Assembly: GCA_035686185.1 (NCBI GenBank)
Contig: DASRZR010000096.1
Coordinates: forward strand, 1 to 37,924
DNA: 37,924 bases
Reading direction: 5' to 3'
Origin: Spirochaetia bacterium
GTDB taxonomy: Bacteria; Spirochaetota; Spirochaetia; SZUA-6; Fen-1364
Numbering within the stretch: the stretch's first letter is position 1; the number at the start of each line of letters is the position of its first letter. Shown in pieces: positions 3,601-27,825 of the stretch. A program made the position numbers and the translations under genes. The notes under the pieces are model-generated. The model ran no database searches. It was given only the letters and a program-made list of their open reading frames with translations, and was not told where the DNA came from.

Positions 3601-3814
3601 GGCGGTGGGTGGTAAGCAGGGGCTGAACGGGAAGCCGCGACGTTTCCGGCGCGGAAGCGCCGGTCCCGCCCGGGGCGGGAGACACGCCGACGGTGCCCGC
3701 CGCCGGGGCGCGCGCCGCCGCACCGCCCGTCACGGCGGCACCGGCGGTTTCGGCCACGGCGGCCGCTGCCGCGCGGGGTACGGCAGCGGCGGCCCCATTG
3801 CCCGGAGCGGTCAT
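626..3814 (-). CDS. HEAT-like repeat protein with C-terminal class III adenylate/guanylate cyclase domain
   Basis: 1062-aa ORF. The C-terminal ~190 aa carry class III cyclase hallmarks (FFSDIQGYSKK, RMGDGHMIVF, IGIHSGAVV..GDVLGNAVNIASRLE). The preceding ~800 aa are Leu/Ala-rich helical repeats of HEAT/PBS-lyase type (e.g. ALEAVGRLGDPRSFPYVARLL). ATG 3814 lies 1 nt after the cheW stop. Confidence 0.85.
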   Translation of the reverse strand: MTAPGNGAAAAVPRAAAAAVAETAGAAVTGGAAARAPAAGTVGVSPAPGGTGASAPETSRLPVQPLLTTHRLFEAFDAQKKSLGLLHGDLFDSRPEVALSALEAVGRLGDPRSFPYVARLLAGAQEDVQAASLRALGGIHHPDVPRLLRDFSKTTHTEKIRREILGALAAAAPGDKDVVALIRHAARTPLGSAGGRAHAAGLLLKVGGEIALEELLTDAREEVLDQIIASAAENPALLPRTVAHCAPLYPRLPSRNRATLVTLAATQSLTESASIMRAALADPNSEVRRAAYAALGTEPHQAAWFSDIVSQMAMAVEGNPALEDEAQAAISRMAKLPDGRAGIQPGTRVTVMSRVGELFKQLSASGRKVSSDAHELGWLIMRSKEYLEYYVDEELKAALLRYLKGTSTETPEGLMKMLKATAVRVEVRHFDGYSALVDLIKNPKRTGIALVARELALARTGKARVLWQLGRVIRLATVFLAPGGPAGEAALLHEIFTWARQEKLFRLAEAALAALAKVDIPGAETACKECLTLPLASKVLAIAALQLLRELNLSLLEPSATRLLASQDDPYVTMNALEAISAGPPSASGDLAKALLTRFSMDCSREVRDVLTAYLGDKVSVDIMESLKEHALHRDEARRSSALAVLDRRIVNGLISNRDGTVEFLYRILRGEHLASRVSAALMLWKMGDDYAAEVLRDFLSGADDTAADILRRLPGALREPLLSGLAPLFRRDGADLQYALRELLLHVEDPSSRERVLQMALEARGDSGRGEEEEEDLIDGVQAVEVRTERQAFQFERENMEELVMFFSDIQGYSKKAQVLSPMQLNALLQEYEKILLAHVEAHHGELVKRMGDGHMIVFQKPLSAVLAAIRLQKRLARFNKFRDENNKVVIRIGIHSGAVVRKGSGDVLGNAVNIASRLETSAKPGSVLISDRIEAAIKDYVHVREIGRITVKNISEPIKVFEPYEIVLDLPAELDPLKAGPAPGAATAGAAAAESGGGSARITLDRDVYVEIVRCFSALAGACRQAPGGSVPVAALNEQVLARWAKLRPRLPGLPPGKKA

Positions 3815-3815
3815 C

Positions 3816-4319
3816 TTACCTGCCGGTCCCCTCGACGGCGGCCTCGATCGTGGAAAGGGCGGCCTTCTCGTCCACCGTGAGGATCGCGTCCGTGTTCAGC
3901 AGGATCACGAGCTTGTCATCCAGCTTGCCCACGCCGGTGATGAACTCCTGGGAGAAACCGCCCAGCACGGGGGGCGGAGGATCGATCTGGTCCGCCGGGA
4001 TCCGCACCACCTGGCTCGCGGAGTCCACGACCATGCCCATCAGGCGGCCTTCCACCTCCACCACGATCACGCGCGTCTGGGCCGTCTCCTCGCGGGACTC
4101 CAGTCCGAACTTGTCCCGCAGGTCGATGATCGGGATCACGTCGCCGCGAAGGTTGATGATGCCTTTCACGAACGAGGGGGCCTTCGGCAGCCAGGTGATC
4201 TCGCGCACGCGGATCACCTCCTTCACGCGGAGGAGCTCCAGGCCGTATTCCTCCTCCCCGACGGAGAAACTGATGAACTGCCGCAGCTCACCGGTTTCCT
4301 TCACTTTGGTTGAATCCAT
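3816..4319 (-). CDS. cheW: Chemotaxis coupling protein CheW
   Basis: 167 aa with the typical CheW fold signature: QFISFSVGEEEYGLELLRVKEVIRVREITWLPKAPSFVKGIINLRGDVIPIIDLRDKFGL. A GGAAGGAG RBS lies upstream of ATG 4319. Confidence 0.9.
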   Translation of the reverse strand: MDSTKVKETGELRQFISFSVGEEEYGLELLRVKEVIRVREITWLPKAPSFVKGIINLRGDVIPIIDLRDKFGLESREETAQTRVIVVEVEGRLMGMVVDSASQVVRIPADQIDPPPPVLGGFSQEFITGVGKLDDKLVILLNTDAILTVDEKAALSTIEAAVEGTGR

Positions 4320-4359
4320 GGTCGTACTCCTTCCGTCACCTCGAGGTGACTGGTCTTTC

Positions 4360-5472
4360 TCACGCCCCCACGGTGACGCTGCCCTGGACCTGCCAGGACG
4401 ATTCCGGCACCGACAGGAATGCTTTCACAATGTCCGGATCGAACCTCGTTCCCGCCTTGCTCACGATCTCTTCCCGCGCCGCCCAGAACGGCAGCGCCGC
4501 GCGATAGGGCCGGTCCGATGTCATGGCATCCAGCGTGTCCATGATCGAGAATATCCGCGCCTCCAGCGGGATCCGGTCTCCCCGCAGCCCGCGCGGATAG
4601 CCGGTGCCGTCCACCGACTCGTGGTGGCACAACACGACCTCCCGCGCGAAGCGGAGGAACTCGATGTTGCGCAGCATCGCGTCGCCCATGGCCGGGTGGC
4701 GCTCCATGATCCGCCGTTCCTCCGCCGTGAGCTCTCCCTTCTTCAGCAGGAGCTGCTCGGCGATTCCGATCTTTCCCACGTCGTGCAGGTAGGCGCCCCA
4801 CTTCAGGTTCTTCAGCTCGAACTCGGACAGGGACAACGCCGCCCCGAGGGTCACGCTGTTGGCGGAGACCCGGGTGCAGTGGTCCGCCGTTTCGTGGTCC
4901 TTCAGGTTCAGCGCGGCGCCCAGCGCCTGGACCGTCATGTCGCAGACCTCGTCGATGCGGCGGGAGGACTGGGAAAGCTCCTCCCCCTTGATCTGCACGA
5001 GGGTCTCCAGCGCCCGCGCGTAGCCCCGCAGGCTCTCGCGGGACCGCCATTCCTCCATGGCCTTGTCCAGGCGCTGGAGGAAGTGACCGACGGCAAACGG
5101 CTTCGTGATGAAGTCTATGGCCCCGTCGCGGATGGCCTGCACGGCGGTCTGGATGTCGTTGCTGCCCGTCATGACGATGACCAGCGGGTCCCCGCCGTGC
5201 TCCTCCACGAGGGACAGGCCGGACCCGTCGGGCAGGTTCACGTCCACCAGCACGATGTCGTAGTCGGACCGGGACAGGAGCTCACGCGCCTCCTGGACCG
5301 TGCCGGCCATGTCGCACTCCAGGCCCCGGACCCGGAGCATCGCCATGACCAGCGTCTGGATCGTGCCCTCGTCCTCCAGGACCAGGATTCGCGGCGGCCG
5401 GGTGGGGACCGGAACCTCCAGCGGGATCTCCCGGGTCGCCGATCCTCTTGTTCTTCCTCCCAGTATCTGCAT
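4360..5472 (-). CDS. Response regulator receiver fused to HD-GYP domain (putative c-di-GMP phosphodiesterase)
   Basis: N-terminal REC (RILVLEDEG..VLVDVNLPDGSG..KPF). C-terminal HD-GYP (HDVGKIGI .. HHESVDGTGYPRGL .. DTLDAMTSDRPYR). Confidence 0.88.
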   Translation of the reverse strand: MQILGGRTRGSATREIPLEVPVPTRPPRILVLEDEGTIQTLVMAMLRVRGLECDMAGTVQEARELLSRSDYDIVLVDVNLPDGSGLSLVEEHGGDPLVIVMTGSNDIQTAVQAIRDGAIDFITKPFAVGHFLQRLDKAMEEWRSRESLRGYARALETLVQIKGEELSQSSRRIDEVCDMTVQALGAALNLKDHETADHCTRVSANSVTLGAALSLSEFELKNLKWGAYLHDVGKIGIAEQLLLKKGELTAEERRIMERHPAMGDAMLRNIEFLRFAREVVLCHHESVDGTGYPRGLRGDRIPLEARIFSIMDTLDAMTSDRPYRAALPFWAAREEIVSKAGTRFDPDIVKAFLSVPESSWQVQGSVTVGA

Positions 5473-5488
5473 CCGTACGCTTCCTTCT

Positions 5489-5776
5489 TCAGTCGTGATG
5501 GGGGTGCGCTTTGAGCTTCTTCAATCCGGAGGCGATCGCGAGGTCCACCTCCACCCGCACCTTCTGCTCCCGGGCCGGATCCGGGTTCAACGGCGTCAAC
5601 AGGGACGTGAAGTACTGCGGCGTCACATGGTTCAGCGTCCACGCCACGAGGTCCAGGACGCACTCCTGGCACGTGCACATCGCCTTGTCCTGCACCAGCT
5701 TCTCGATCGCCTCGTAGACGATCTGCTCCGATCGGTTGCCAATGCTCTCCAGGTCGTATTTCTCTGTCAGCTTCAT
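5489..5776 (-). CDS. ComFB-family small protein
   Basis: 95 aa. The motif CTCQECVLDLVAWTLNHVTPQY matches the ComFB (late competence development protein) signature CxCxxCxxD..ALN..xPxY. The ATG overlaps the cheB stop (ATGA). Confidence 0.75.
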   Translation of the reverse strand: MKLTEKYDLESIGNRSEQIVYEAIEKLVQDKAMCTCQECVLDLVAWTLNHVTPQYFTSLLTPLNPDPAREQKVRVEVDLAIASGLKKLKAHPHHD

Positions 5777-6885
5777 ATCGCCTTCCTCATCGCCCGGCCA
5801 TGCAGGGCCTCCATGACACGGGAGGCGATCTGCTCCACGGGAGCCACGTCATCCGCGTCCCCGCCCTGCACGACCTCGCGGTTCATTCCATAGATCACCG
5901 AGGTGTCCTTGTCCTGCGCGATGACGCGCCCGCCGCGGCGGTGCAGCTCGTGCAGCCCCAGGGCGCCGTCCTTGCCCATCCCCGTCATGATGACGCCCAC
6001 GGCCTTGGGGCCGTACTCCAGGGCCACGGAATGCATGAGCACGTCCACGGAGGGGCGGTGCCCGTTCACGTTCTCCGACTGGTTCAGCGCCACGTGCGGG
6101 GCCTTTCCGAACTTTGACACCGTCATGTGCCAGTTGCCCGGAGCCAGCAGCACCCGCCCGGGCAGGATCAGGTCCCCGTCCTCCGCTTCCTTGACCCTCA
6201 CCGCGCAGCAGCCGTCCAGCCGCTCCGCGAAGGCCTTCGTGAAGACCGGGGGCATGTGCTGCACCACCACCACGCCAACCGGGAAGTTCGCCGGCAGCAT
6301 ACTGAGAACGGTCTTCAGCGCCACGGGGCCGCCCGTGGAGGTACCGATGGCCACCAGCTCGCTTTCCGCCTCGCCGAGGAAATCCGGTTGGCGCCGCACG
6401 GGCGCCTCCGGTGCGACGGGCGCGGCGGCGGCGGCCCGGGTCGGGGACGAGCTCGGCGGGAGAGGCGGGGCCACCTTCGGGGCGGCGAACACGATGTGCG
6501 ATGCGTTCCTGACCTTCTCGGTGAGCTCCTCCGCCACCGCGGTGAGGCCGCCGGACAGGGACGCGGAGGGCTTCAGCACGAAGTCCACGGCGCCAAGGTC
6601 CAGCGCCTGCAGCGTGAGGTCGGCGCCCTGGCGGGCGTGAGCGCTCAGCACGATGATGGGCGTCGGACGGGTGGCCATGATGCGGCGGATGGCTTCCAGC
6701 CCGCCCATCCCCGGCATCTCCAGGTCCAGGGTGATGACGTCCGGCTTTTCCTTGTCCAGCTTGGGCAGGGCGAACTCCGCCTGCGCCGCCGTGGCAACGA
6801 CGGACATCTCGGGATCGGCACTGAGGATATCCGAAGCGATCCGGCGCACCAGCGCCGAATCGTCGACGACCATGACCCGGATCAC
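5773..6885 (-). CDS. cheB: Chemotaxis response regulator protein-glutamate methylesterase CheB
   Basis: REC (IRVMVVDDSALVRR..ITLDLEMPGMGG) plus CheB methylesterase domain (LVAIGTSTGGP..VVVQHMP..GMGKDGA). The track ORF extends to 7188, but that extension overlaps cheR in another frame. I set the start at GTG 6885, which overlaps the cheR TGA (GTGA) and lies 7 nt after AGGAGG. ATG 6873 is the alternative. Confidence 0.9.
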   Translation of the reverse strand: MIRVMVVDDSALVRRIASDILSADPEMSVVATAAQAEFALPKLDKEKPDVITLDLEMPGMGGLEAIRRIMATRPTPIIVLSAHARQGADLTLQALDLGAVDFVLKPSASLSGGLTAVAEELTEKVRNASHIVFAAPKVAPPLPPSSSPTRAAAAAPVAPEAPVRRQPDFLGEAESELVAIGTSTGGPVALKTVLSMLPANFPVGVVVVQHMPPVFTKAFAERLDGCCAVRVKEAEDGDLILPGRVLLAPGNWHMTVSKFGKAPHVALNQSENVNGHRPSVDVLMHSVALEYGPKAVGVIMTGMGKDGALGLHELHRRGGRVIAQDKDTSVIYGMNREVVQGGDADDVAPVEQIASRVMEALHGRAMRKAI

Positions 6886-7763
6886 GACGCGGCCTCCTTT
6901 GAGGTTTCCTTCTTCCGCCGGTAGATGGGGGCCTTGAGCGCCGACACGTAGGCGAACTGCTTCGTGAAACCGCTCAGGCTCTCCGAGTGGCCAATGAACA
7001 GGTAGCCGTCCGGGTGCAGGGCGCGCGCGAAGATCCCGTCCACGAGCTTCACCTGGGTCGGCTTGTCGAAATAGATCATCACGTTGCGGCAGATGATGAT
7101 GTGGGCGACGTCCCACGGAGGGGGATCGGTGAACAGGTTGTGCACGCGGAAGTCTACGCGGGCGCGCGTGGGCTCGTTCACCTGCCACGCGTCATCTCCC
7201 GCCGGCTCGAAGTATTTCGTGAGCAGGTCGGGGGGAACGAGCCGAAGCGCCCGTTCACGGTAGATGCCCTCCCGGGCCCGCGCAATCACGGTGGTGCTGA
7301 TGTCCGTCCCGATGATCTCGGGCTCCCGGGCGCCGGCCGCGCGCGCGGCCTGGTCGGCCACGATGCGCAGCGTGTAGACTTCCTCGCCGGTGGAGCAGCC
7401 GGCGCTCCAGATGCGCACGCGCGGGAAGGCGCGGAACAGCTCCGGCAGCACGGTAGCGGACAGCGCCGTGAAGTGGGCGTTCTCGCGGAAGAAGTAGGTC
7501 TCGTTCGTGCTCACCGCGTCAATGAAGTTCGCCATCTCCGTGTCGCCGCCCCGGGAAACCAGCAGCGAGTAGTAGTCCTCGTAGGATCCCAGCTTCAGCG
7601 TGACCAGGCGCTTTCGAAGCCGGTTGGCGATGAGGATCTGCTTCCCGTCGCGCATGTGGATGCCGGTCTTGTCGTAGATCAGCGCGCGGAAGCGATCGAA
7701 CATCTCGTCCGTCAGCACGGGCCCGCCCACGGGGGGCAGCGGCCGCAGGGGCACGGAGCTCAC
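6882..7763 (-). CDS. cheR: Chemotaxis protein methyltransferase CheR
   Basis: 293 aa. CheR N-terminal helical domain plus SAM-binding domain (ETYFFRE, RIWSAGCSTGEE, IFCRNVMIYFD-like IICRNVMIYFD). The GTG start overlaps the cheD stop (GTGA). Confidence 0.9.
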   Translation of the reverse strand: MSSVPLRPLPPVGGPVLTDEMFDRFRALIYDKTGIHMRDGKQILIANRLRKRLVTLKLGSYEDYYSLLVSRGGDTEMANFIDAVSTNETYFFRENAHFTALSATVLPELFRAFPRVRIWSAGCSTGEEVYTLRIVADQAARAAGAREPEIIGTDISTTVIARAREGIYRERALRLVPPDLLTKYFEPAGDDAWQVNEPTRARVDFRVHNLFTDPPPWDVAHIIICRNVMIYFDKPTQVKLVDGIFARALHPDGYLFIGHSESLSGFTKQFAYVSALKAPIYRRKKETSKEAAS

Positions 7764-8245
7764 TTGGTCACCCCCCTCGTGGCAATCGCCTGAAGAGTCT
7801 TCACCGTCACCTTGCCGGTGACGTTGCTGAATACCACGGAGCGGCCGGCGGTCCCCCCGATGTCCTCGAAGATGATCGGGATGCGCTGCTCGGCAAGCAC
7901 GCGCCGGGCCGCGGCCACGTTCTGGTCACCGATGGACGCGATGCTCGCGTTGCCCATGGGGAACATCTGGGCCCCGCCGATGAGCAGCGCCTGGAGGGCG
8001 GTCGCCCGGCTGCCCATCTGCAGGACGCGCTGGAGAAGCTCCGGGATGGCCGAGTCGGCGTACTTGCCGCTGGCCTCGTCATCGTTGCGCCGGGCCGGAA
8101 GCATGATGTGCGCCAGGCCGCTGATCTTGCGATCGGCATCCCGCAGGACCACGCCCACGCAGGAGCCGAGCACCGTCTTCAGGCTGCGGCCGTCAGCGAC
8201 CACTTCCATCTCGGCCATCTTCACGGTAACGGACTCCCCGTCCAT
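7760..8245 (-). CDS. cheD: Chemoreceptor glutamine deamidase CheD
   Basis: Core LKTVLGSCVGVVL..GLAHIMLP..SGKYAD..GGAQMF is typical of CheD. The track extension to 8377 overlaps cheA. I set the start at ATG 8245-8243, which shares one base with the cheA TGA (TGATG). Confidence 0.88.
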   Translation of the reverse strand: MDGESVTVKMAEMEVVADGRSLKTVLGSCVGVVLRDADRKISGLAHIMLPARRNDDEASGKYADSAIPELLQRVLQMGSRATALQALLIGGAQMFPMGNASIASIGDQNVAAARRVLAEQRIPIIFEDIGGTAGRSVVFSNVTGKVTVKTLQAIATRGVTK

Positions 8246-11200
8246 CACACGACCCCCGGCGTGGCCCCGGTGGACGGGGCGGCGGGCGCCATGGCGCCGC
8301 CCTGCCGGGCGGCCCGGGACAGGGCGTCCATGAGCCGACGCATGGAATCCGGCTCCAGGAACATCACCTGGTGGCACACGACGTTCTCCGAGCCGCCGCC
8401 GTAGATCACCGCCTCGGTGAGCAGGATCTTGTCACCGGGCTGGTTGAACCGGGCGAGCACGGAGTCAATGACCGGCAGGCACATATCCACGCTGATCTCG
8501 GGCACCTCGGGATTGAGCGCGAGGTGCGCGGAGTCAGCCATGGCGTTCAGGAAGCAGGAGGCGAGCAGGTTGCCCATCTCCGAGATGCCGGACAGATCCA
8601 CGGTTCCCAGGTCCTTTGCCGTCCCCACGGAGCGCCGGTGCAGCAGGTCGTCGAGCACGAGCAGGTTCTTCTCCGGGATGACCAGGAGCATGCCAGCTTC
8701 CAGGTCCCCGACCACGCCGACGTACATCCCGCCGACGGTGCTCTCTTCCCCGCCCATGATCTCCGCCACGTCCTTGATGGCCACCAGCCGGGATTCGGGG
8801 AAGCTCACGCGGATGTCCTGGCCGGTGAGCTGGGAAAGCGACATGGAGGCCTCGATGGCCCCCTGGTTGTTCACGTCTTCCAGGAGCCTCCCGCGAGAGC
8901 TGGAAACGTCCCGGGCGAGCTGCTCGATGGGCTCGGAGGTGGCCGGCGCCTTTTGCGCGGGCGCAGCGGCCGGCGGGGCGGCAGGCGCCTCCGCGGCCGG
9001 TTTCTCCGCGGCGGGCGCGGAGACGGCGGGAGCCGGCGCGGCCGCAGCGGGTGCCGCCGGGACCGGCGCAACCGCGGCCGGTGCCACGGGAGCCGCCGCG
9101 GCGGGGGCCAACGGACGGGCCGCCGGGGCCGCGACGCCCGGCGGCGGGGCCAGCCGGGGCGTCTCCCCGGCGGTCTCCCGCACCATCCCGGCGGAGTCCA
9201 TGGTGGAGCCGCGGCTGGTGTGATGCTGGCTGATCATCGTTTCCACGTCCACGATGAGCGCGATCTTTCCGTTTCCGAGGATGGAGGCCCCGATGAGCCC
9301 GTCCACCTCGCGGTAGTGGCGGCTCAGGCTCTTGATGACCACTTCCCTCGAGCCGACGATGCCGTCCACTTCCAGGCCGATCTTGCGGCCCTCGTAGTCC
9401 ACGACCACGACCGGCCGTGTGGCGCCGGCCACCACCTTGTCCGCGGTGGAGCCGGTCACGGCGCGACGGCCGTCACCGTTGGCCTTCAGCGCCCGCGCCA
9501 GGTTCACCAGCGCCAGCACCTCGTTGCGCAGCAGCATCGTGCGCCGGGTCCCGACGGTCTTCAGCATGTCCTCCGTGGCCTTGACGATCTCGCGGACCGC
9601 GGAGATGGGGATGGCGTACGTCGAGCCGGCGGCCTCCACGAGGACCGCCCCGATGATCGCCATCGTGAGAGGCAGGGAAATCGTGACCGTGGTGCCGGCG
9701 CCCGGGGTGGAACGCACCCGCAGGTTGCCGTTCATCTCATCCACGGCGCGCTTCACGGCGTCCATGCCGACGCCGCGGCCCGAGATGTCGGAGACCACGC
9801 GCGCGGTGCTGAACCCCGGGAGGAAGATGAAGCCGAGGACCTGTTCCGGGCTCGCGCGGGCTGCCTCGTCGCTGGCGAGCAGCCCCTTCTCCAGGGCTTT
9901 CCTCAGTATCGCTTCCCGGTCCAGCCCGCGTCCGTCGTCGGCCACCTCGATGCAGATGTGGTCCCCGTCCTGGTAGGCGCCCAGTCGGATGACGCCGGAC
10001 TCCGGCTTGCCGGCCGCCAGCCGGTCCGCGGCCGTTTCCAGGCCGTGGTCCACCGAGTTGCGCACCAGGTGCACGAGCGGCTCCCCGATGCGGTCGATGA
10101 CCTTCTTGTCGATCTCCGTCTCTTCCCCGAAGACGTCGAGGGAGACGGACTTCCCGCTCGCCTTGGCCAGGTCGCGCACCACGCGGCGGAAGCGGTTGAA
10201 GACGTTGGCGATGGGCAGCATCCGCGCCTTCATGATGCCGTCCTGCAGGTCGCGCGTGATGGCGGCGAGCGCCTCTGTCTTCTCCTCCAGGTCGTAGATG
10301 TGCTTCGTCTTGCCGTACTCGTCCCGGAGCTGCTGCGTGACGGTGGCGAACCCCGAGTTGTGGATCACCAGCTCCCCGACGAGGTTGAGCAGAGTATCCA
10401 GCTTCTGCACGGACACCCGCACCACCTCTTCCGGCCGGCCCCCCTTGGGCAGCTCGCCACCGGAGGGCTTCGGGCCTTCCCCGGCCTCTGCCAGTTCAGC
10501 GGAGGCAGGACCTCCCGCGGCCACCGCGGCAGCGGCGGGCGCCGGCGCGGCAGAAGGCTCCGGGACGGCCTCCACCGTCACCTGGTCCACCGAGATGGCC
10601 GAGACGATCTGGTCAACGTCCAGCGGACACGAGATCGTCACCGTGTAGACAAAAGGATCCGTTGAGTCTCGAAGAGTCTCCGGTTCCGGCTCCTGCCGCA
10701 TGACGGAGCCCATCCGGTCAAAACGAGCCCTCACGATGCACGAGCGCAGGTACGCTTCGCGGTTCTGGCCGTCGATGCGCACTTTCAGCCGGCTCATCCG
10801 CGGCAGACCGCCGGTCGGGGCGGCCGTCGGAGCCGCCGGCACCGGGCCCGCGGGCGCCGCCGCTGCCGCGGGGGTCTTCGGCGGCTCCGCGGTCCGCGCA
10901 GGTTCGGGCGGCGCGGCCACGGGCGCCGGGCGGGAAGGCGGGGCGGCCGCGGGAGCGGCAGCTGCCGGGGCTGCCGCCGCCGGAGCTTTTGGCGCCGGCG
11001 CCGGTGCGGCGGAGTCTTTGCGGGCCTTCGGCTTCTTGCCGCTCGCCGTGTCGACGAGCCGCGCAAGGTAGTCGTCCACGGAGCGGGCGGCCTCGGCGGA
11101 GTTCACGGCCGTGCCGGCCGAGAACGTCTCAATCAGGGATCGGGCCAGGTCCAGGCCCTGGAACAGCATGTCCGAGAGCGCGCCGTCATAGGACCGTTCG

Positions 11201-11433
11201 CCATCCCGCACGTTGGACAGGGACGACTCCAGGTCATGGGCGAGCTTCTGAAGCAGGTCGAACCCGATGAACCCGGCCGACCCTTTCAGCGTATGGACCG
11301 CCCGGAACAGGTTGTTCAGAGGCTCACGGTCCGTGGGCGCCTTTTCCAGCGCCAGCAGGCTTTCTTCCCATTCCCGCAGCTGGTCTCCCGCTTCCTCGCT
11401 GAAGATGGCCAGGTACTCCGCCTTCACTTCCAT
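8245..11433 (-). CDS. cheA: Chemotaxis histidine kinase CheA with two Ala/Pro-rich linkers and a C-terminal CheC-like phosphatase domain
   Basis: Hpt/P1 (FRAVHTLKGSAGFIGF), dimerisation plus HATPase (VHLVRNSVDHGLE, DDGRGLD, GRGVGMDAV), and P5/CheW-like (VVVVDYEGRKIGLEVDGIVGSREVVIK). A ~90-aa Ala/Pro linker follows. The final ~215-aa domain contains SGISEMGNLLASCFLNAMADSAHLALNPEVP, which matches the CheC/CheX/FliY consensus D/S-x3-E-x2-N-x22-P. Confidence 0.92.
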   Translation of the reverse strand: MEVKAEYLAIFSEEAGDQLREWEESLLALEKAPTDREPLNNLFRAVHTLKGSAGFIGFDLLQKLAHDLESSLSNVRDGERSYDGALSDMLFQGLDLARSLIETFSAGTAVNSAEAARSVDDYLARLVDTASGKKPKARKDSAAPAPAPKAPAAAAPAAAAPAAAPPSRPAPVAAPPEPARTAEPPKTPAAAAAPAGPVPAAPTAAPTGGLPRMSRLKVRIDGQNREAYLRSCIVRARFDRMGSVMRQEPEPETLRDSTDPFVYTVTISCPLDVDQIVSAISVDQVTVEAVPEPSAAPAPAAAAVAAGGPASAELAEAGEGPKPSGGELPKGGRPEEVVRVSVQKLDTLLNLVGELVIHNSGFATVTQQLRDEYGKTKHIYDLEEKTEALAAITRDLQDGIMKARMLPIANVFNRFRRVVRDLAKASGKSVSLDVFGEETEIDKKVIDRIGEPLVHLVRNSVDHGLETAADRLAAGKPESGVIRLGAYQDGDHICIEVADDGRGLDREAILRKALEKGLLASDEAARASPEQVLGFIFLPGFSTARVVSDISGRGVGMDAVKRAVDEMNGNLRVRSTPGAGTTVTISLPLTMAIIGAVLVEAAGSTYAIPISAVREIVKATEDMLKTVGTRRTMLLRNEVLALVNLARALKANGDGRRAVTGSTADKVVAGATRPVVVVDYEGRKIGLEVDGIVGSREVVIKSLSRHYREVDGLIGASILGNGKIALIVDVETMISQHHTSRGSTMDSAGMVRETAGETPRLAPPPGVAAPAARPLAPAAAAPVAPAAVAPVPAAPAAAAPAPAVSAPAAEKPAAEAPAAPPAAAPAQKAPATSEPIEQLARDVSSSRGRLLEDVNNQGAIEASMSLSQLTGQDIRVSFPESRLVAIKDVAEIMGGEESTVGGMYVGVVGDLEAGMLLVIPEKNLLVLDDLLHRRSVGTAKDLGTVDLSGISEMGNLLASCFLNAMADSAHLALNPEVPEISVDMCLPVIDSVLARFNQPGDKILLTEAVIYGGGSENVVCHQVMFLEPDSMRRLMDALSRAARQGGAMAPAAPSTGATPGVV

Positions 11434-11467
11434 TGAATATCTCCGTTGGCCTGCCCGGACGCGGTGC

Positions 11468-11995
11468 TCAGGTCTCGCTCAACAGGCCGTCATCGGAGCC
11501 GCCCACTTCCTGCAGCGTCTCCTTCTCTTCCACGGCAATGCTGATCTCGATGGGCCCGTACTGCGTGATCAGTCCCAGCACGAGCGCCGGCTTGGGAACG
11601 AGGTGAACGTTCAGGTTCGTGCCGGAGGCGATCGCGGGGGTCGTGATGTTCAGTATCTGGTCCCGGCGCTGGTTGAGCAGGGACGTGGCGTTGCCCGTGA
11701 TCATGTTCGCCACCTCCCCGAGGCAGTCCAGGAACATGATCTTCTTTTCCTGCGGCGACTTGCCTTCCAGCATCTTGTCCACCAGGCGCTCGGCGAGCTG
11801 GCCGTCCATGCTGTACACGATCTGCCCGGTGAGAAACCCGTAGATCCCGATGATGATCGAGACGCCGAACGACGGCTCCACCCTCTCCTTGTAGGAGAGA
11901 TGTCCGCGGCGGACCTCGATGCCGGCGATCTGGGTAACCACCCTCATGGCGGCTTCGACGAACGGATTCACGTGCTTCGCGTTGATCTTCACCAT
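11468..11995 (-). CDS. cheX: CheX/CheC-family CheY-P phosphatase
   Basis: 175 aa starting MVKINAKHVNPFVEA. It has a single phosphatase motif, DCLGEVANMITGNATSLLNQRRDQILNITTP (D-x3-E-x2-N-x22-P). AGGAGGAA lies upstream of ATG 11995. The track extension to 12298 is Arg/Gly-rich and overlaps cheY. Confidence 0.8.
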   Translation of the reverse strand: MVKINAKHVNPFVEAAMRVVTQIAGIEVRRGHLSYKERVEPSFGVSIIIGIYGFLTGQIVYSMDGQLAERLVDKMLEGKSPQEKKIMFLDCLGEVANMITGNATSLLNQRRDQILNITTPAIASGTNLNVHLVPKPALVLGLITQYGPIEISIAVEEKETLQEVGGSDDGLLSET

Positions 11996-12021
11996 GGCTG
12001 CATTCCTCCTGTGGCTCTTCT

Positions 12022-12384
12022 CTAGTGGAGAGCCTTCTCTACGGCGGAGAGGATGCGTTCCTTGGTGAACGGCTTCACCACGAAATCGCGCACCCCGAGA
12101 GCGATGGAGTCCAGCAGCATCTTCTCCTGGCCGAGCGCCGTCACCATGACGATGCGCGCGTTCGGATCTGCTGCAAGGATTTCCCGCGCCGCCTCGAGCC
12201 CGTCCTTGACTTTCATCGTGATGTCCATTGTCACAAGGTCGGGTTTCAATTCGGCGTACTTCGTCACGGCCTCGGCGCCGTTTGTGGCCTCGCCACAAAT
12301 CTCGAAACCATTAGGCGCCAGCGTGTCCTTGACGATGGTGCGCATGAAGTTCGCATCATCGACTACCAAGACCCTCTTTGCCAT
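12022..12384 (-). CDS. cheY: Chemotaxis response regulator CheY
   Basis: 120-aa single REC domain (KRVLVVDDANFMR .. LVTMDITMKVKDG .. MVTALGQ .. FVVKPF). GAGGAGGA RBS lies before ATG 12384. Confidence 0.9.
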   Translation of the reverse strand: MAKRVLVVDDANFMRTIVKDTLAPNGFEICGEATNGAEAVTKYAELKPDLVTMDITMKVKDGLEAAREILAADPNARIVMVTALGQEKMLLDSIALGVRDFVVKPFTKERILSAVEKALH

Positions 12385-12457: not shown

Positions 12458-12567
12458 AGTCATGGCATGCCCAGATTTGCCGGGAACCTTGAAAAACCGC
12501 GGCAAAACAAGCAAAAGCGTTATGAGCAGCGCGCAGGAGCGCGCCGGGATCTACCTCCTGCCTCAAA

Positions 12568-12608
12568 GTGGAACGATACGTTCCACCCCGCGTGAACTAT
12601 GGAACAGG
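12568..12608. promoter_or_regulatory. Enhancer-like (UAS) module: perfect inverted repeat GTGGAAC-N5-GTTCCAC plus an extra TGGAACAGG half-site
   Basis: The palindrome is at 12568-12586, with its centre ~121 bp upstream of the -24 GG. The third half-site is at 12600-12608. Read on the minus strand: CCTGTTCCA-N13-GTGGAAC-gtatc-GTTCCACTTTGA. Confidence 0.5.
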
Positions 12609-13991
12609 CCTCCCTCCCGGTGGCCCGCTCTCAATTCCATATTTCTTCATTTTTCTCCACAACGTGTTCCGGCCCATGCGCAGCGCCTCGGCCGCGCGCG
12701 TCTGGTTGCCGTCCGCGTCCCGCAGCGCCCGCAGGATCGCCTCCCGCTCCGCGCCGTGAATCGTCTGGTCCTCGCGCGGGGCCGCCGGCAACGGCGCAGA
12801 GACTGTCCGCTCCCCCAGGGAGAAGATGGCGCGGAACTCGTCCGCCGAAATGACCGGCGAGGAGGAGAGGGTGACGGCCCGTTCAATGAGGTTCTCCAGC
12901 TCGCGCACGTTGCCGGGCCAGCCATGGGCAAGCGCCAGCTCCAGGGCCTCCGGGGCGAGACTCTGCGGAGAGCGGCCGAGCTTCGTGCCGTACACGGCCA
13001 GGAAATGACGGCACAGCGGCAGGATGTCGTCGCGGCGGTCCCGCAGCGGCGGGATCACAATGGGAATCACGTTGAGCCGGTAGAACAGGTCCTCCCGGAA
13101 CCTCCCGTCCCGGATCAGGTCCACCAGGTTGCGGTTCGTGGAGGCGAGGATCCTCACGTCCACGCGCCGCACCGCGGTGCTTCCGACGCGGCGGACCTCG
13201 CCCTCCTGCAGCACGCGCAGCAGCTTTCCCTGCAGGAGCAGGGGCATGTCCCCGATCTCGTCCAGCAGGAGCGTTCCCCCGTCGGCGTCCTCGAACAGCC
13301 CCTTCTTCTCCGTGGCCGCGCCGGTGAACGCGCCCTTGGCGTAGCCGAACAGCTCGCTCTCCAGGAGCGCCTCCGGCAGCGCGGCGCAGTTGATGGCGAT
13401 GAACGGGCGGGCCGCCCGGGGGCCGCGGAAGTGGATGGCCCGCGCGATCAGCTCCTTGCCGGTTCCGCTCTCCCCCTGGATGAGCACGGCGGAGTCCGCG
13501 GTGGCCACCATCTGCACCAGCTCCATCACGCGGCGCATGCCGGCGCTGGCCGCCACGAGGCCGGAAACGGAGTAGCGCTCGCCGACCTCCCGGCGGAGGT
13601 TCGTGAGCTCGCTTCGCATCGTGCGCCGCTCGATGGCGCGGTCCACCGTCAGCAGGAACTTCTGCGTAGAGATGGGCTTCGTGAGGTAGTCGAAGGCGCC
13701 CGCGCGCACCGCCTCCACCGCGGAGTCGATCGTGCCGTAGGCGGTGATCACGAGCACTTCCGGCTCGTACGGCCGGGCCCGGGCAAGGCGGAGGACCTCC
13801 AGCCCGTCACCGTCGGGGAGCATCAGGTCCGTGAGCACCAGCTCGAACTCGCCGGTCTTCAGCGCCTCCGCGGCCTCGCGCACGCCCTCCACGGCCAGCA
13901 CGTCGTGGGAATTGGCGGACAGCAGGTCGCGAAGCAGGCTCCGTATCGCCTCGTCATCGTCGACCACGAGGATACGATGGCCGCGTCCCAT
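12597..13991 (-). CDS. Sigma-54-dependent response regulator (NtrC-family bEBP: REC + AAA+ + Fis-type HTH)
   Basis: REC (RILVVDDDEAIR..LVLTDLMLPDGDG). AAA+ sigma-54 interaction domain (GESGTGKE, GAFTGA, ESELFGY). C-terminal HTH (RTRAAEALRMGRNTLWRKMKKYGI). Confidence 0.92.
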   Translation of the reverse strand: MGRGHRILVVDDDEAIRSLLRDLLSANSHDVLAVEGVREAAEALKTGEFELVLTDLMLPDGDGLEVLRLARARPYEPEVLVITAYGTIDSAVEAVRAGAFDYLTKPISTQKFLLTVDRAIERRTMRSELTNLRREVGERYSVSGLVAASAGMRRVMELVQMVATADSAVLIQGESGTGKELIARAIHFRGPRAARPFIAINCAALPEALLESELFGYAKGAFTGAATEKKGLFEDADGGTLLLDEIGDMPLLLQGKLLRVLQEGEVRRVGSTAVRRVDVRILASTNRNLVDLIRDGRFREDLFYRLNVIPIVIPPLRDRRDDILPLCRHFLAVYGTKLGRSPQSLAPEALELALAHGWPGNVRELENLIERAVTLSSSPVISADEFRAIFSLGERTVSAPLPAAPREDQTIHGAEREAILRALRDADGNQTRAAEALRMGRNTLWRKMKKYGIESGPPGGRPVP

Positions 13992-13995: not shown

Positions 13996-14373
13996 CTATC
14001 CTCCTCCCCGTTCCCCGAGGTGCCGCGCGATTTCCCGCAGGAAGTGGTCGGTGGACAGGGGTTTCACGATGAACCCGTCACACCCGGCGAGGGCGGCCCG
14101 CTCGGCGTCCTGCTTCATGGCCTGCGCGGTGAGCGCAATCACAGGGATACGCGCGGTGACCTCCCGTGCCTTCAACAGCCGAGTGGCCTCCAGGCCGTCC
14201 ATGCCGGGCAGTGCCACGTCCATCAGGATCAGGTGGGGCGCCTGGTCGGCGGCCAACTGGATTCCTTCCTCCGCAGAGGTTGCCTGGATCACGTCGTACC
14301 CCGCCCGTTCCAGCAGGATCACGATCAGTGCCATGATAGTCGGGTCATCCTCGACGACCAGCAACCTGCTCAT
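13996..14373 (-). CDS. Single-domain response regulator (REC only)
   Basis: MSRLLVVEDDPTIMALI..LILMDVALPGMDGLEA..IALTAQAM..GFIVKPL. The track extension to 14610 lacks homology and is Arg/Ser-rich. The stop lies 4 nt before the bEBP ATG. Confidence 0.85.
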   Translation of the reverse strand: MSRLLVVEDDPTIMALIVILLERAGYDVIQATSAEEGIQLAADQAPHLILMDVALPGMDGLEATRLLKAREVTARIPVIALTAQAMKQDAERAALAGCDGFIVKPLSTDHFLREIARHLGERGGG

Positions 14374-19529: not shown

Positions 19530-19637
19530 GAATGCTTGTCCGGACGCTACCGTTTCGCCGCCGGATTGTCAAGGAAAACGGGGTTGCCGGTCAATTTTAC
19601 GTGCCGCAAGACCGAAATTAGCGATAAAGGGCGTGGA

Positions 19638-20498
19638 GTGCTGACAAAGACCATCAAGTACAGGACGGAGGGGCGCAAACGAATCACCGCCCACACGTAT
19701 CGCCGCAAGATACGTGGCGCGCTGCTGTCCCTGACGCGGAACGTGATCCTGTGCAACACGCCGGAGCACGTGGACGCCGCAGCCGCCCTGGCCCAGGTGG
19801 TCAGCGCGGATGGCATGAACAACCGCAACTACCTGCTGTTCCTCACGCTCCTGGAGACGAACCACCCCTTCGTGATCGACATCCTCGTGGGCCGGCGCAA
19901 CCCGTTCCTGCTCTTCTCCCCGATCAAGCCCAACTGGTTCCTCGTCAAGGAGACGTTCAGAATCCTCGCCAAGTTCAAGGGCAACGAACTGGCCGAGAAG
20001 GCGCTGCTGGCGCTCCTGGGGATCGTGCAGAACGCGTACAAGACCTCGAAGGACGGCTACAAGATCTACCCGCTGCGGATGTCGGACGTGTACAACATAG
20101 GCAAACACCTGGACAAGGAGCGGGACCAGCTCGACCCCCGCAATCGCCTGCTGCTGGAGATCCTGTTCGACATCTACTTCGTGGGAATCGACAGCGACAA
20201 CCGGGCCACCAAGCAGATCGGGATCAAGGCGAACGACATCCGGATGTCGTTCTTCGATCACACGAAGCGGATGGTGGATGCCATCCCGGACGTGCTGCTC
20301 GTCAAGGACATCATCCGCATCCCTCCCGCCGCGGTCTGCTTCAAGTGGGAGGCGCCGGAAGTTTCGCCGCCGGCGCTTGAGTCGCGGGAGCCCCCCGAGC
20401 TCAAGCTGGCCCTGAGGGAGCGGGCGCCGGCGCCCCGTTCTAAGAAAGCGCCGGCAAAGAAGCCAACCCCGCGCGGAAAGCCGCGGAGCCGAAGATGA
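19638..20498 (+). CDS. Paralog A of an unrecognised five-member family (basic N-terminal segment and Lys/Pro/Arg-rich C-tail)
   Basis: It shares all family motifs with B-E (NYLLFLTLL, FVIDILVG, IKPN, DGYKIY, DVYNIGKHLD, NRLLLEIL, IRMSFFDH). The track start at 19536 is a TTG only 7 nt from the divergent LysM ATG. GTG 19638 (AAGGG 6 nt upstream) fits the paralog N-terminal lengths better. The start remains uncertain. Confidence 0.8.
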   Translation: MLTKTIKYRTEGRKRITAHTYRRKIRGALLSLTRNVILCNTPEHVDAAAALAQVVSADGMNNRNYLLFLTLLETNHPFVIDILVGRRNPFLLFSPIKPNWFLVKETFRILAKFKGNELAEKALLALLGIVQNAYKTSKDGYKIYPLRMSDVYNIGKHLDKERDQLDPRNRLLLEILFDIYFVGIDSDNRATKQIGIKANDIRMSFFDHTKRMVDAIPDVLLVKDIIRIPPAAVCFKWEAPEVSPPALESREPPELKLALRERAPAPRSKKAPAKKPTPRGKPRSRR

Positions 20499-20519
20499 GC
20501 CGAAGCGCGAGAGAAAAGT

Positions 20520-20548
20520 TTGACAAGCGCATCCGTGAAGCATAGAAT
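20520..20548 (+). promoter_or_regulatory. Near-consensus sigma-70-type promoter TTGACA-N17-TAGAAT
   Basis: Read directly from the sequence: TTGACA at 20520-20525, a 17-nt spacer, and TAGAAT at 20543-20548. It begins 22 nt after the stop of paralog A and ~320 nt upstream of paralog B. Confidence 0.45.
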
Positions 20549-20626
20549 TGCAGACACCTGACTGGTGCAGGCGCGAAGGAAGCGGCTGCGGAACCGCACC
20601 GGTAGCAATCGCCGTCCTTGCAACTG

Positions 20627-20656
20627 CCTGTTCCAGTGTGGAACAAGAAGTTCCAC
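20627..20656. promoter_or_regulatory. Enhancer-like (UAS) module: CCTGTTCCA-N2-GTGGAAC-N5-GTTCCAC
   Basis: Perfect inverted repeat GTGGAAC-aagaa-GTTCCAC at 20638-20656, with its centre ~134 bp upstream of the -24 GG at 20781. An extra half-site is at 20627-20635, and another GTGGAAC is at 20716-20722. The architecture and flanks match the module at 12568-12608. Confidence 0.55.
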
Positions 20657-20779
20657 TTTGACGCACTGTTTGCTGCCTTGAAAAACGGGGGCGCCATGGT
20701 AGCGGCGCCCGGTGTGTGGAACACCGCTCGAAAAGGCCCGTTTCTCCTGGCACAGTTTCTCTGCCTTGCAACGGTGGGT

Positions 20780-20796
20780 TGGCATGAGCCTTGCTT
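20780..20796 (+). promoter_or_regulatory. Sigma-54 (-24/-12) promoter in front of paralogs B-E
   Basis: TGGCATGagccTTGCTT has exact GG-N10-GC spacing. It lies 72 nt upstream of ATG 20867 and is near-identical to the che promoter TGGCATGgtcgTTGCTT. Confidence 0.7.
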
Positions 20797-20866
20797 TGAA
20801 TAGTAGAGCCAGCCGCGTGGACTGGCAGGAAAGGGCGAGACACCGCGCTCCGTTGGAGAGAGGGAG

Positions 20867-21586
20867 ATGCTTCATTTTCCTTTACTGAAGTTCTGGAACG
20901 AGGACGAGCTGTACGCTCTGCAGGTCTCCGCGGTGTCGCGCCTGATGAAGGTGGACACTCCCTACGCGGTTGAGGCCACGGTGGAGATCGCGAAGTTCCT
21001 CTGTGACAAGGGCCTGGACTCGGACAACTATCCGCTGTTCCTGGAGCTGCTGCGGGACGAGAACCGCTTTGTCATCGAGGCGCTGATCGGGAAGAACAAG
21101 GCCTTTGACCTGTTCACCCGCGTGCAGCCCAACCCGTACATCATCGAGTTCTGTCTCACAACGCTGCGGTCCTATGCGCCGGGCGGCGTGAACGACCGCA
21201 CGCTGGAGATGATCTTCGGGATCCTGTACCGCAACTACCACAGCGCGCGGGAAGGCAACATGCTGCACCGTCTCACGATCGAGGACGTGAACGCCGTGGG
21301 CAAGTTCCTGGACAAGTCACGTGACCAGAACGACCCGATCAACCGCTTCATCCTCGACATCCTGGCCGACATTGCGGAGTACCGCTCCATCAACAACGAG
21401 GACCCGGCGCTGGACAAGAACTCCTCGCACGCGACGGCCATCCGCAACGCGTTCTTCGACACCCGCCGCTCCCTGTCCAGCGTGATGCCGGCGGAGATCC
21501 TGGTGAGAAAAAACTACGATGAAACTCTCGTGAAGCCGCGAAGCACGCGAAAGTTCACGGAAACCGCTAAACCGAAGGGGAAATAG
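20867..21586 (+). CDS. Paralog B of the unrecognised family
   Basis: 239 aa with family motifs NYPLFLELL, FVIEALIG, VQPNP, DVNAVGKFLD, NRFILDIL, IRNAFFDT. It has a short basic tail (KPRSTRKFTETAKPKGK). A purine-rich GGAGAGAGGGAG precedes the ATG. Confidence 0.88.
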   Translation: MLHFPLLKFWNEDELYALQVSAVSRLMKVDTPYAVEATVEIAKFLCDKGLDSDNYPLFLELLRDENRFVIEALIGKNKAFDLFTRVQPNPYIIEFCLTTLRSYAPGGVNDRTLEMIFGILYRNYHSAREGNMLHRLTIEDVNAVGKFLDKSRDQNDPINRFILDILADIAEYRSINNEDPALDKNSSHATAIRNAFFDTRRSLSSVMPAEILVRKNYDETLVKPRSTRKFTETAKPKGK

Positions 21587-21597
21587 GAGGCGAACCC

Positions 21598-22290: not shown

Positions 22291-22303
22291 GGGAGGCAGA
22301 AGC

Positions 22304-23155: not shown

Positions 23156-23171
23156 CCGAACAAGCAGGCGC

Positions 23172-23205
23172 TCGGCGGCCCGGGAGTCTCTCCCGGGCCC
23201 GCCGA
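23172..23205 (+). terminator. Strong GC-rich hairpin between paralogs D and E (terminator, attenuator or processing site)
   Basis: TCGGC-GGCCCGGGAG-tct-CTCCCGGGCC-c-GCCGA forms a 15-bp stem with one bulge and a 3-nt loop. No clear U-tract follows (tgccttcc). Confidence 0.4.
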
Positions 23206-23227
23206 TGCCTTCCGGCGGGGTGACGGC

Positions 23228-24002: not shown

Positions 24003-25667
24003 GTGCTCGTCTGCCTGCTGGCCGGTTTCATGATCGTGGACGCCTCCTCGCCGTGGCTCCACGGCATCGAGGGATGGAGGATCGGTGGGGCGGCGTCGGG
24101 GGCCGCCTTTCTCATCTACGCCCTGGCGCTGTCCCGCCGGTGGGAGAAAGCGGTGCTGCCGCTGCACGCGCTGCAGCTTGCCGGCCTCATGGTGATGATG
24201 TGCGGCATCAGCGCGGAGCTGGCCACCCGGCCGGACTTCCCCACCTTCGGCCGCACCGGGCTCATCTCCTCCCTGCTCGTGTGCATCTTCGCGGATTTCA
24301 TCCTCGCCGCGGGGCTGCGGGGATGGCTGGCCGTCATCCTCCTGCCGCCGCTGGCGGCCATGGGGATCTATGTCACGGCCGTGGGTTCTGCGCTCTCCCC
24401 GACCGAGAAGTTGTGGCTCGTCAGCAACCCCCTCGCGCTCGCCATCGTCGTCTCCATCCTCGGACTGTACCAGGAGCACGCGGCCCGCAAGGAGCACCGC
24501 GGACGTGCCGCGCTGCGCCGTTCCGAGGAAGCGCTGCGGGCGGGGCAGGAGCACCACCGCGTGGAGCTGGAATCCATGCTGCAGCGGCTGGAGTTCGTCC
24601 TGGCGGCCGGGCACACCGGGCTGGACATCGTGGATGAGGACTACGTGGTGCAGTACGTGGACCCGGCCCGACGCGCCTCCCTCGGAGACCCGTCGGGCCG
24701 CACGTGCTACCGGTATTTCCGCGGTCTCACCGAGCCGTGCGTGGACTGTGCCATGCGCCGGGCGTTCGCCACCGGGCAGGTCCAGGTGATGGAGCAGACC
24801 GACGCGAACGAGTCACACCGCCCCGTGCAGGTGACGGCCATCCCGTTCCGCGGTGAATCCGGCAGCATGAGGGTGGCGGAGGTCGTGGTGGACATCTCCG
24901 AGCGAAAACAGGCGGAGGCCGATCGCCTGGAATGGGAGCGGCGCACCGCCGCCTCCCGGCGGATGGAGAGTCTGGGGATCCTCGCGGGGGGAGTGGCCCA
25001 CCACTTCAACAACCTCCTGACGGTGATCCTGGGGCACGCGGATCTCCTCCAGGACCTGCTGCCGGCCGACCCGGGTCCCCGATCTTCCCTGCGGGAGATC
25101 GTGCGCGCCGGACAGCGCTCCCGTGACCTCGTGCTGCAGCTCCTGGCGCTCGCGCCGGGCCATTCCGTGCAGCTTCGGCCGCTGGACCTCAACGAGGTGA
25201 TCCGGACGCGCCAGGAGGCCTTTCGGGCGGCCGTGCGCCCCGGGATTTCCTTCTCCTACGACCTGTGCGCGAACGCGGGGCCCGTCCAGGGAGACGCGGC
25301 GCGCCTCGGGGAGGCGCTCTTCCACCTCGTGCTGAACGCGCAGGACGCCATCGCGACGGACGGTCGGATAGAGATCTCCACGTCCCGCGCGGACCGGGAC
25401 TCGGCCCCCCGCGCCGCGCCCGCCCGCTGGATCCTGTTGAGCGTCCGCGACACCGGTTCCGGGATGGATCCGGAGACGGCGGAGAAGGTTTTCGACCCGT
25501 TCTTCACCACCAAGGAGCCCGGCAAGGGAACCGGCCTCGGTCTGCCCGTGGTGCGCGCCATCGTGAAGCAGCACCAGGGTGAGATCGACGTGGAAAGCCG
25601 GCCCGGCGCCGGCACGCGGTTCCTGCTCTACCTTCCGGTCGTGGATCAGACGACGGACGGCACCTGA
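24003..25667 (+). CDS. Membrane sensor histidine kinase (multi-pass N-terminus, PAS with Cys motif, HisKA, HATPase_c)
   Basis: About 5 hydrophobic helices in the first 150 aa. PAS-like segment with C-x10-C-x2-C (GRTCYRYFRGLTEPCVDCAMR). H-box ILAGGVAHHFNNLLTVILGHADLL. N/G boxes (LVLNAQDA, DTGSGMD, GKGTGLGL). Confidence 0.88.
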   Translation: MLVCLLAGFMIVDASSPWLHGIEGWRIGGAASGAAFLIYALALSRRWEKAVLPLHALQLAGLMVMMCGISAELATRPDFPTFGRTGLISSLLVCIFADFILAAGLRGWLAVILLPPLAAMGIYVTAVGSALSPTEKLWLVSNPLALAIVVSILGLYQEHAARKEHRGRAALRRSEEALRAGQEHHRVELESMLQRLEFVLAAGHTGLDIVDEDYVVQYVDPARRASLGDPSGRTCYRYFRGLTEPCVDCAMRRAFATGQVQVMEQTDANESHRPVQVTAIPFRGESGSMRVAEVVVDISERKQAEADRLEWERRTAASRRMESLGILAGGVAHHFNNLLTVILGHADLLQDLLPADPGPRSSLREIVRAGQRSRDLVLQLLALAPGHSVQLRPLDLNEVIRTRQEAFRAAVRPGISFSYDLCANAGPVQGDAARLGEALFHLVLNAQDAIATDGRIEISTSRADRDSAPRAAPARWILLSVRDTGSGMDPETAEKVFDPFFTTKEPGKGTGLGLPVVRAIVKQHQGEIDVESRPGAGTRFLLYLPVVDQTTDGT

Positions 25668-27785: not shown

Positions 27786-27825
27786 TCGGCCGTCTTTGCG
27801 CGGCCCGGCAGGCTGCCGGCTCGGA

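Follow-up and report, generated by a model that had tools for sequence, protein, structure and literature searches.

A predicted sigma-54 regulon linking a chemosensory operon to unannotated paralogs in an uncultured spirochete

Introduction

Does one regulator control two look-alike control regions, one in front of a chemosensory operon and the other in front of a row of genes without any annotation? This question is raised by a stretch of DNA of 37,924 nucleotides (contig DASRZR010000096.1 of assembly GCA_035686185.1), here called the window, from an uncultured Spirochaetia metagenome-assembled genome (MAG) of soil/peat metagenomes. With a G+C content of 68% it is unusually GC-rich for a spirochete. 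A preliminary description of the sequence had proposed that the region upstream of the paralog array B-E duplicates the control region of the che operon, that both carry a sigma-54 promoter and an upstream enhancer, and that the NtrC-family gene at 12597-13991 encodes their common activator. The spirochete phylum reportedly averages only 1-2 such activators per genome (PMC3162934).

Materials and methods

Related loci, designated by L and a number, came from a genome-collection scan, a metagenome scan and contig look-ups. The pairing of hexamer clusters with promoters was counted in 30 of these loci, comprising 351 kb.

Results and discussion

Gene layout

The genes needed for the argument are the following, each with the basis of its assignment where one applies.

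626..12384 (-): chemosensory operon (Pfam; synteny in relatives)
12597..13991 (-): candidate activator of 464 aa with REC, sigma-54-interaction AAA+ and Fis-type HTH (Pfam, NCBIfam, translation)
13996..14373 (-): stand-alone receiver of 125 aa, directly upstream of the activator gene (domain search)
14417-14995 (+): DJ-1/PfpI gene, between the MCP gene and the receiver gene
15009-17234 (-): dCache MCP
19536..20498 (+): paralog pA (alignment; the true start is probably slightly downstream of 19536)
20867-21586 (+): paralog pB (alignment)
21598-22290 (+): paralog pC (alignment, AlphaFold2 model)
22304-23155 (+): paralog pD (alignment)
23228-23932 (+): paralog pE (alignment)
24003..25667 (+): PAS histidine kinase, 70 bp past pE (Pfam)

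On the minus strand the order is thus dCache MCP, receiver, activator, che control region and che operon. The operon itself runs cheY, cheX, cheA-cheW, cheD, cheR, cheB, comFB, RR-HD-GYP, cheW and HEAT-adenylate cyclase. Its end (626-5776, minus strand) encodes ComFB, the RR-HD-GYP phosphodiesterase, the second CheW and a HEAT-repeat adenylate/guanylate cyclase. This content suggests a Che-like pathway with cyclic-nucleotide outputs, more than plain motility control.

On the plus strand, pA is transcribed separately from B-E, and the pA-pB intergenic region (20499-20866) is non-coding. No plus-strand terminator was found in 19300-24100, the gap between pE and the PAS kinase gene included, and the B-E transcription unit may end with the kinase gene. 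The window contains no rpoN gene.

Two control regions of the same architecture

The che control region lies between the activator gene and cheY.

12563..12608 (-): predicted activator-binding site, CCTGTTCCA-N13-GTGGAAC-gtatc-GTTCCACTTTGA (sequence, shuffles, conservation in relatives)
12608-12600 (-): distal half-site CCTGTTCCA, followed by the N13 gap
12586-12580 (-): palindrome arm 1, GTGGAAC, followed by the spacer gtatc
12574-12563 (-): palindrome arm 2 with flank, GTTCCACTTTGA
12458-12440 (-): predicted sigma-54 promoter TTGGCATGgtcgTTGCTTT, with the -24 GG at 12456-12455 and the -12 GC at 12444-12443

The array control region lies between pA and pB.

20520..20548 (+): near-consensus sigma-70 promoter for pB-pE, TTGACA-17-TAGAAT (11/12 matches)
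20627..20661 (+): predicted activator-binding site, CCTGTTCCA-gt-GTGGAAC-aagaa-GTTCCACTTTGA (sequence, shuffles, L087/L088 orthologs)
20627-20635 (+): distal half-site CCTGTTCCA, followed by the gap gt
20638-20644 (+): palindrome arm 1, GTGGAAC, followed by the spacer aagaa
20650-20661 (+): palindrome arm 2 with flank, GTTCCACTTTGA
20689-20710 (+): GC hairpin GGGCGCC-N8-GGCGCCC, between binding site and promoter
20717-20722 (+): fourth hexamer, TGGAAC, also between binding site and promoter
20779-20797 (+): predicted sigma-54 promoter TTGGCATGagccTTGCTTT, with the -24 GG at 20781-20782 and the -12 GC at 20793-20794

All strings quoted in the preliminary description for the two regions are present base for base, and so is the GG-N10-GC spacing of both promoters. 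The two palindromes are indeed perfect 7+7 inverted repeats with a 5-nt spacer, and their centres, put at ~134 and ~121 bp upstream of the -24 GG, were measured at 134.5 bp (array) and 121.5 bp (che). Transcription is predicted to start near 20806 (+) and near 12431 (-). From the -12 GC it is 73 nt to the ATG of pB and 59 nt to that of cheY; both intervals are non-coding, and each promoter faces its gene. The distal che half-site, which holds the first hexamer, shares bases with the final three codons (P-V-P) of the activator gene. Overall, spacing, orientation and conservation at both sites are those of sigma-54 promoters, while repeated or inverted half-sites 80-200 bp upstream of the -24 element and associated with such promoters are what characterizes their enhancers.

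Within the window this combination is far from random. Allowing up to 2 mismatches, GTGGAAC-N5-GTTCCAC occurs 3 times (2 of them perfect) against 0.13 expected, and 3 matches were reached in 0 of 100 shuffles. An exact search for TGGCAY-N5-TTGC returned the che and array sites only, as the preliminary description had found by eye, and both read TGGCAT. Likewise, TTGGCATGagccTTGCT and TTGGCATGgtcgTTGCT are the sole exact matches to YTGGCAYG-N4-TTGCW, with GG and GC exactly 10 nt apart. Triplets of GTTCCA/TGGAAC within 45 bp are confined to the same two places (0 in 300 Markov shuffles), and each of the window's sigma-54 promoters lies 115-130 bp downstream of such a three-hexamer cluster. A REP-like or dispersed repeat was rejected within the data examined: a search of the window found no repeat family over either site, and in related loci the hexamer clusters are paired with promoters, as detailed below.

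Some further features of these regions were noted. T-tracts about 10 bp apart (cTTTTgcttgTTTTgccgcggTTTTTc) occupy 12470-12530 (-) between the che binding site and promoter, and similar A/T tracts are found in L006 and L010; they may bend the DNA intrinsically as an aid to looping. The GC hairpin at 20689-20710 is preceded by A5, which on the minus strand reads T5 and gives it a terminator-like appearance there; L087 and L088 have an analogous A-run and GC hairpin in the same relative place. A third target in the window, the MCP gene, was considered and rejected, as it has a sigma-70-like TGgTATAAT promoter after a terminator hairpin. Searches of the window found no Rfam families and no tRNAs, and the idea that the long leader of the sigma-70 transcript contains a riboswitch or another known RNA was rejected.

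Hexamer arrays and sigma-54 promoters are paired in relatives

Using BLASTN with both control regions against 76 loci we obtained matches in the same organism only, and conservation was therefore read at the level of motifs. The exact 19-bp palindrome is absent from the related loci; the conserved unit is a hexamer of 6-8 nt with the extended half-site consensus (C)TGTTCCA. Across the 30 loci, 14 clusters of at least three GTTCCA hexamers stand against 14 exact sigma-54 promoters. A promoter lies 87-165 bp downstream of every such cluster and the reverse is also true, the sole unpaired sigma-54 promoter being that at the contig end of L079. Hexamers follow each other at 9-13 or 20-24 bp, with a spacer of 4 or 5 nt between TGGAAC and GTTCCA. 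Their orientation is mixed and follows no fixed pattern, L008 having three direct repeats. These arrays therefore appear looser than a classic dimer palindrome. The preliminary description had noted that the spacing of the extra half-site differs by 11 bp between the two regions, about one helical turn; spacing by roughly one or two turns fits the loci compared, whereas the exact 11-bp difference is not conserved. The proximal hexamer is found at -115 to -137 from the -24 GG in all che and pB sites, and closer, at -74 to -77, in the modules of MCP operons.

The close clade shares the synteny of che operon, activator, RR, DOMON, LysM and pA-pE, and all relatives retain the RR-activator gene pair. 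Wherever the sequence of a relative extends over the region, the che module is found (L003, L006, L009, L010, L011, L055, L081 and L095). In these eight the activator is 67-89% identical, and each has an exact -24/-12 element and 3-4 hexamers that begin at or just after the activator stop codon. L093, with an activator 63% identical, has its che operon divergent from RR-activator. There, the cheY upstream region keeps GGAAC-N5-GTTCCA and TGGCATGaataTTGC, while three hexamers and a sigma-54 promoter (11345-11490, +) still follow the activator stop codon, now in front of a dCache-MCP gene. Counting L093, a hexamer array follows the activator stop codon in 10/10 orthologous loci. Conservation of the sigma-54 promoter extends to 9 orthologs of the che region and 3 of the array region. 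A third module in L081 (6476-6700, -) precedes an operon of a secreted 192-aa protein and a dCache-MCP. Relatives thus appear to have recruited other genes to hexamer/sigma-54 modules, namely the MCP operons of L081 and L093. The PAS kinase after pE was considered as a conserved partner of the activator and rejected: the L093 regulon contains a kinase with no more than 28% identity to it, which is hence not orthologous.

The candidate activator

Pfam matches to Response_reg, Sigma54_activat, AAA_lid_14 and HTH_8 cover the product of 12597-13991, and its translation contains the Walker A motif GESGTGKE, the GAFTGA loop and the receiver Asp in LTDLMLPD. A receiver with a phospho-acceptor Asp, an AAA+ domain bearing Walker A and GAFTGA, and a Fis-type HTH at the C-terminus together place it in group I of the bacterial enhancer-binding proteins (bEBPs; NtrC class). 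It scores below all NCBIfam equivalog cut-offs, those of AtoC, NtrC, ZraR and other named activators, and is therefore none of the named orthologs. Orthologs are 63-89% identical and keep the helix RNTLWR(K/R)MK; this recognition helix is invariant while the remainder of the protein has diverged. A paralog in L094, 55% identical and in an unrelated context, has a sigma-54 promoter and lacks GTTCCA, and its HTH helix reads DRTSLW as compared to GRNTLW in the orthologs.

The array module is confined to a few relatives

The array sigma-54 module is shared by the window, L077 (identical to the window), L079, L087 and L088. Most relatives do not have it; their only promoter before pB is of the sigma-70 type, strongly conserved as TTGACAAC...cATAGAAT ~77-79 nt ahead of the ATG. 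This clade-wide promoter is probably the ancestral one of pB. In the window the sigma-70 promoter at 20520-20548 stands upstream of the array enhancer, and the sigma-54 module that follows it puts the pB ATG ~318 nt away. Operon B-E thus probably has two tandem promoters, the ancestral sigma-70 and an added sigma-54 promoter. Since the ancestral promoter is retained, sigma-54 control of B-E would be an add-on. The sigma-54 link of the array appears restricted to a sub-lineage, and its input seems dispensable because most relatives have the sigma-70 promoter alone before pB-pE.

The array site of L087 and L088 reads TGTTCCA-N5-GTGGAAC-N5-GTTCCA. No change is seen among L079, L087 and L088 in the array hexamers, TTGGCAYGAGCCTTGCT or the ribosome-binding region, while the DNA in between has diverged. 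L008 has a module that is built differently, with three direct GTTCCA repeats and a promoter 38 nt from the ATG. A neighbour-joining tree of pB places the loci with the module in a basal grade, and L008 branches within the sigma-70-only clade. This topology implies either gain followed by loss or repeated gains of the array module.

A proposed local regulon

Building on the elements themselves, their non-random pairing, their conservation and the domains of the activator, we propose, with a probability of about 0.7 for the reading including its mechanism, that the two enhancer-dependent sigma-54 promoters form one small local regulon of the 12597-13991 activator. This response-regulator-type activator would bind the (C)TGTTCCA hexamer arrays, in which hexamers lie about one helical turn apart and a core TGGAAC-N4/5-GTTCCA is joined by one or two more. 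Phosphorylation of the receiver would yield an oligomer that loops over ~115-135 bp to the closed complex of RNA polymerase and sigma-54 at TTGGCATG-N4-TTGC, and ATP hydrolysis by the activator would then open the promoter. Binding, oligomerization on phosphorylation, looping and opening are how activators of this class generally work (reviews PMC7057263, PMC7175178). The core conserved target would be the cheY-cheX-cheA...cyclase operon, which comes right after the activator gene. A second module of this kind, present in the lineage of the window, lies between the older sigma-70 promoter and pB, so that pB-pE, and perhaps the PAS kinase, would combine basal sigma-70 expression with activator- and sigma-54-dependent induction and be co-regulated with the chemosensory operon. 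The phosphoryl group might come from CheA, as an analogy with Che3-CrdA (PMC3147164) would have it, or from the PAS kinase. That activators regulate adjacent sigma-54 operons is the rule in the regulome report on Desulfovibrio vulgaris (PMC4641369). Two observations speak against the proposal: the loose build of the hexamer arrays, and the sigma-54 input that most relatives seem to do without at pB-pE. The common regulon and the activator put forward in the preliminary description are thus both favored by comparison of related loci: the former by pairing and conservation in the 30 loci, the latter by the che module, which always abuts the activator stop codon, and by the site that persists in L093.

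Several other explanations were weighed against this regulon. The promoters may be real and the GTTCCA arrays bound by a different regulator (an activator, a repressor or an architectural protein) encoded elsewhere, the adjacency of the NtrC-type gene being coincidental or only a matter of operon history. Only 38 kb of the genome are visible, soil Spirochaetia may encode several activators, as the very many NtrC-family homologs in databases with L094-type paralogs among them suggest, and the flexible orientation of the hexamers also leaves room for such a protein. We nevertheless consider it unlikely, since the array stays behind the activator stop codon even where the downstream gene has changed, the recognition helix of the orthologs does not vary while the rest of the protein does, and the array is seen only with this ortholog group and is absent at the paralog of L094. 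That the elements are fortuitous consensus matches and pB-pE are driven by the sigma-70 promoter alone would agree with the intact, clade-wide conserved sigma-70 promoter and with the many relatives that have no sigma-54 module. However, a hexamer triplet with an exact -24/-12 element at the right distance never arose in shuffles, the elements are invariant across otherwise diverged orthologous regions and the pairing over 351 kb is one to one, which makes this explanation very improbable.

The likeness of the two regions within one genome could also mean that the che control region was recently duplicated physically, or gene conversion took place, and that a non-functional passenger copy may have been left upstream of pB. 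The flanks CCTG..., ...CTTTGA and TTGCTTT are indeed common to both regions, and in place of CTTTGA the orthologous array sites of L087 and L088 have TATTGA. The DNA between the elements argues against such a copy: che and array share 60 identities there, compared with 64 +/- 2.5 in shuffles, and the best local alignment of the two regions covers the palindrome only, with a score of 28 against a shuffle maximum of 31. Moreover, the spacers track orthology, as the array spacer 'aagaa' recurs in L088 and the che spacer 'gtatc' resembles 'gtacc' in L095. With only the functional elements in common and spacers that go by orthology, the array module is no recent copy of the che module. It was also in place before the lineages of the window and of L087 and L088 separated (pB is 79% identical between them), and since then the elements have not changed, which argues for selection. 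We therefore regard a recent passenger copy as very unlikely and reject wholesale duplication of the che control region. The duplication claimed in the preliminary description holds for the architecture and fails for the sequence.

The paralogs

The paralogs are more intriguing than the promoter pair. They are 29-37% identical to pA in alignments, and profile searches of pA-pE against Pfam, NCBIfam, PADLOC and PDB returned no match. An AlphaFold2 model of pC (pLDDT 88, pTM 0.82) is all-alpha with 13 helices. A Foldseek search with this model gave no hit below E = 0.1 (the best were 0.12 in the PDB and 0.3 in BFVD), and the fold resembles ARM/HEAT/TOG-like proteins weakly. A profile search of 1.8 billion representatives put the family at ~220 clusters at 50% identity, among which no informative domain fusions were found. 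Matches in the genome collection are almost entirely Spirochaetota MAGs. Among relatives pC is 92-98% identical, mostly near 97%, compared with 70-85% for the activator and pB, and it is still 59-65% identical as far as Treponema and Marispirochaeta, so that the constraint on pC appears extreme. The C-termini of pA (20400-20498) and pD (23050-23155) are basic tails rich in Lys, Pro, Ala and Arg and histone H1-like; they also occur, in variable form, in orthologs.

In a Treponema sp. MAG (L062, 7120-14389) the cluster consists of a paralog, a calcineurin-like phosphoesterase, a 306-aa protein, pC, pD, a further paralog and a Ser/Thr protein kinase. This Treponema-type cluster sits with the metallophosphoesterase and the Ser/Thr kinase and without che genes, and the che linkage is therefore specific to the clade of the window. 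Some Treponema-type genomes (L020, L039, L056 and L069) have two copies of the paralog cluster.

Recruitment of pB-pE is seen in the lineage of the window and separately in L008, beside the MCP operons in L081 and L093. One doubtful yet conceivable reading is that pA-pE are an unrecognized scaffold or structural part, or an output, of the HD-GYP/cyclase/ComFB chemosensory-like pathway, with repeated recruitment of the operon as a sign of functional coupling. If this is true, the recruitment of the paralog operon reflects a real functional coupling to the che-linked activator.

Comparison with known systems

In the glnAp1/glnAp2 arrangement of Escherichia coli a sigma-54 promoter stands in tandem with a sigma-70 promoter, and NtrC sites lie upstream. 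The window shares with it the activator layout of REC, AAA+ (GAFTGA) and Fis-type HTH, the multiple inverted half-sites ~11 bp from centre to centre and ~100-140 bp upstream of GG-N10-GC, and the tandem upstream sigma-70 promoter with activator sites at it or just downstream. From the sigma-70 -10 element it is ~8 nt to the start of the first hexamer in L087 and L088. By analogy with glnA, the bound activator could possibly repress the sigma-70 promoter of the array. The half-site differs, being (C)TGTTCCA here and TGCACC at glnA, and so do the targets, which are chemosensory genes and unannotated paralogs here and nitrogen-assimilation genes there.

A second precedent is the Che3 chemosensory system of Myxococcus xanthus, the output of which is the NtrC homolog CrdA (PMC3147164). 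Both systems genetically link a Che-like cluster to an NtrC-family sigma-54 activator with a receiver domain, and the pathway in the window likewise has non-motility outputs (HD-GYP, cyclase, ComFB). As in Che3, the phosphorylation state of the activator may plausibly be set by CheA, by a classical kinase or by both. Unlike Che3, which has no CheY, the operon in the window begins with cheY and cheX. The che operon is moreover itself a predicted target of the activator here, which would make a feedback loop, a possibility opened by the position of the operon right after the activator gene. The hosts also differ, a spirochete as compared to a myxobacterium. Small, computationally defined regulons with an activator gene beside a sigma-54 promoter and a common upstream motif are also described in the D. 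vulgaris report (PMC4641369), where they are backed by binding and expression assays, in contrast to the comparative sequence evidence behind the regulon proposed here.

The type of switch is ordinary in bacteria, and the understanding of how sigma-54 systems work is unchanged by it. What it offers is a tie between an unannotated protein family and chemosensory signalling, and thereby a first context clue for this highly conserved spirochete family. For the uncharacterized NtrC-class activator it provides a testable motif, (C)TGTTCCA hexamers at ~11-bp spacing, together with a list of targets, and it predicts enhancer-dependent control of a Che-like pathway with cyclic-nucleotide outputs. It also suggests regulon turnover among close relatives, with a sigma-54 module added behind a sigma-70 promoter here and other genes recruited elsewhere.

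Finally, the part of the window from 26724 to 37579 encodes a UbiA prenyltransferase and a full haem-biosynthesis cluster with GluTR, PBG deaminase fused to UroIII synthase, ALAD, UroD and ferrochelatase as well as an amine-oxidase-type oxidase, a chlorite-dismutase-like protein and GSA aminotransferase.
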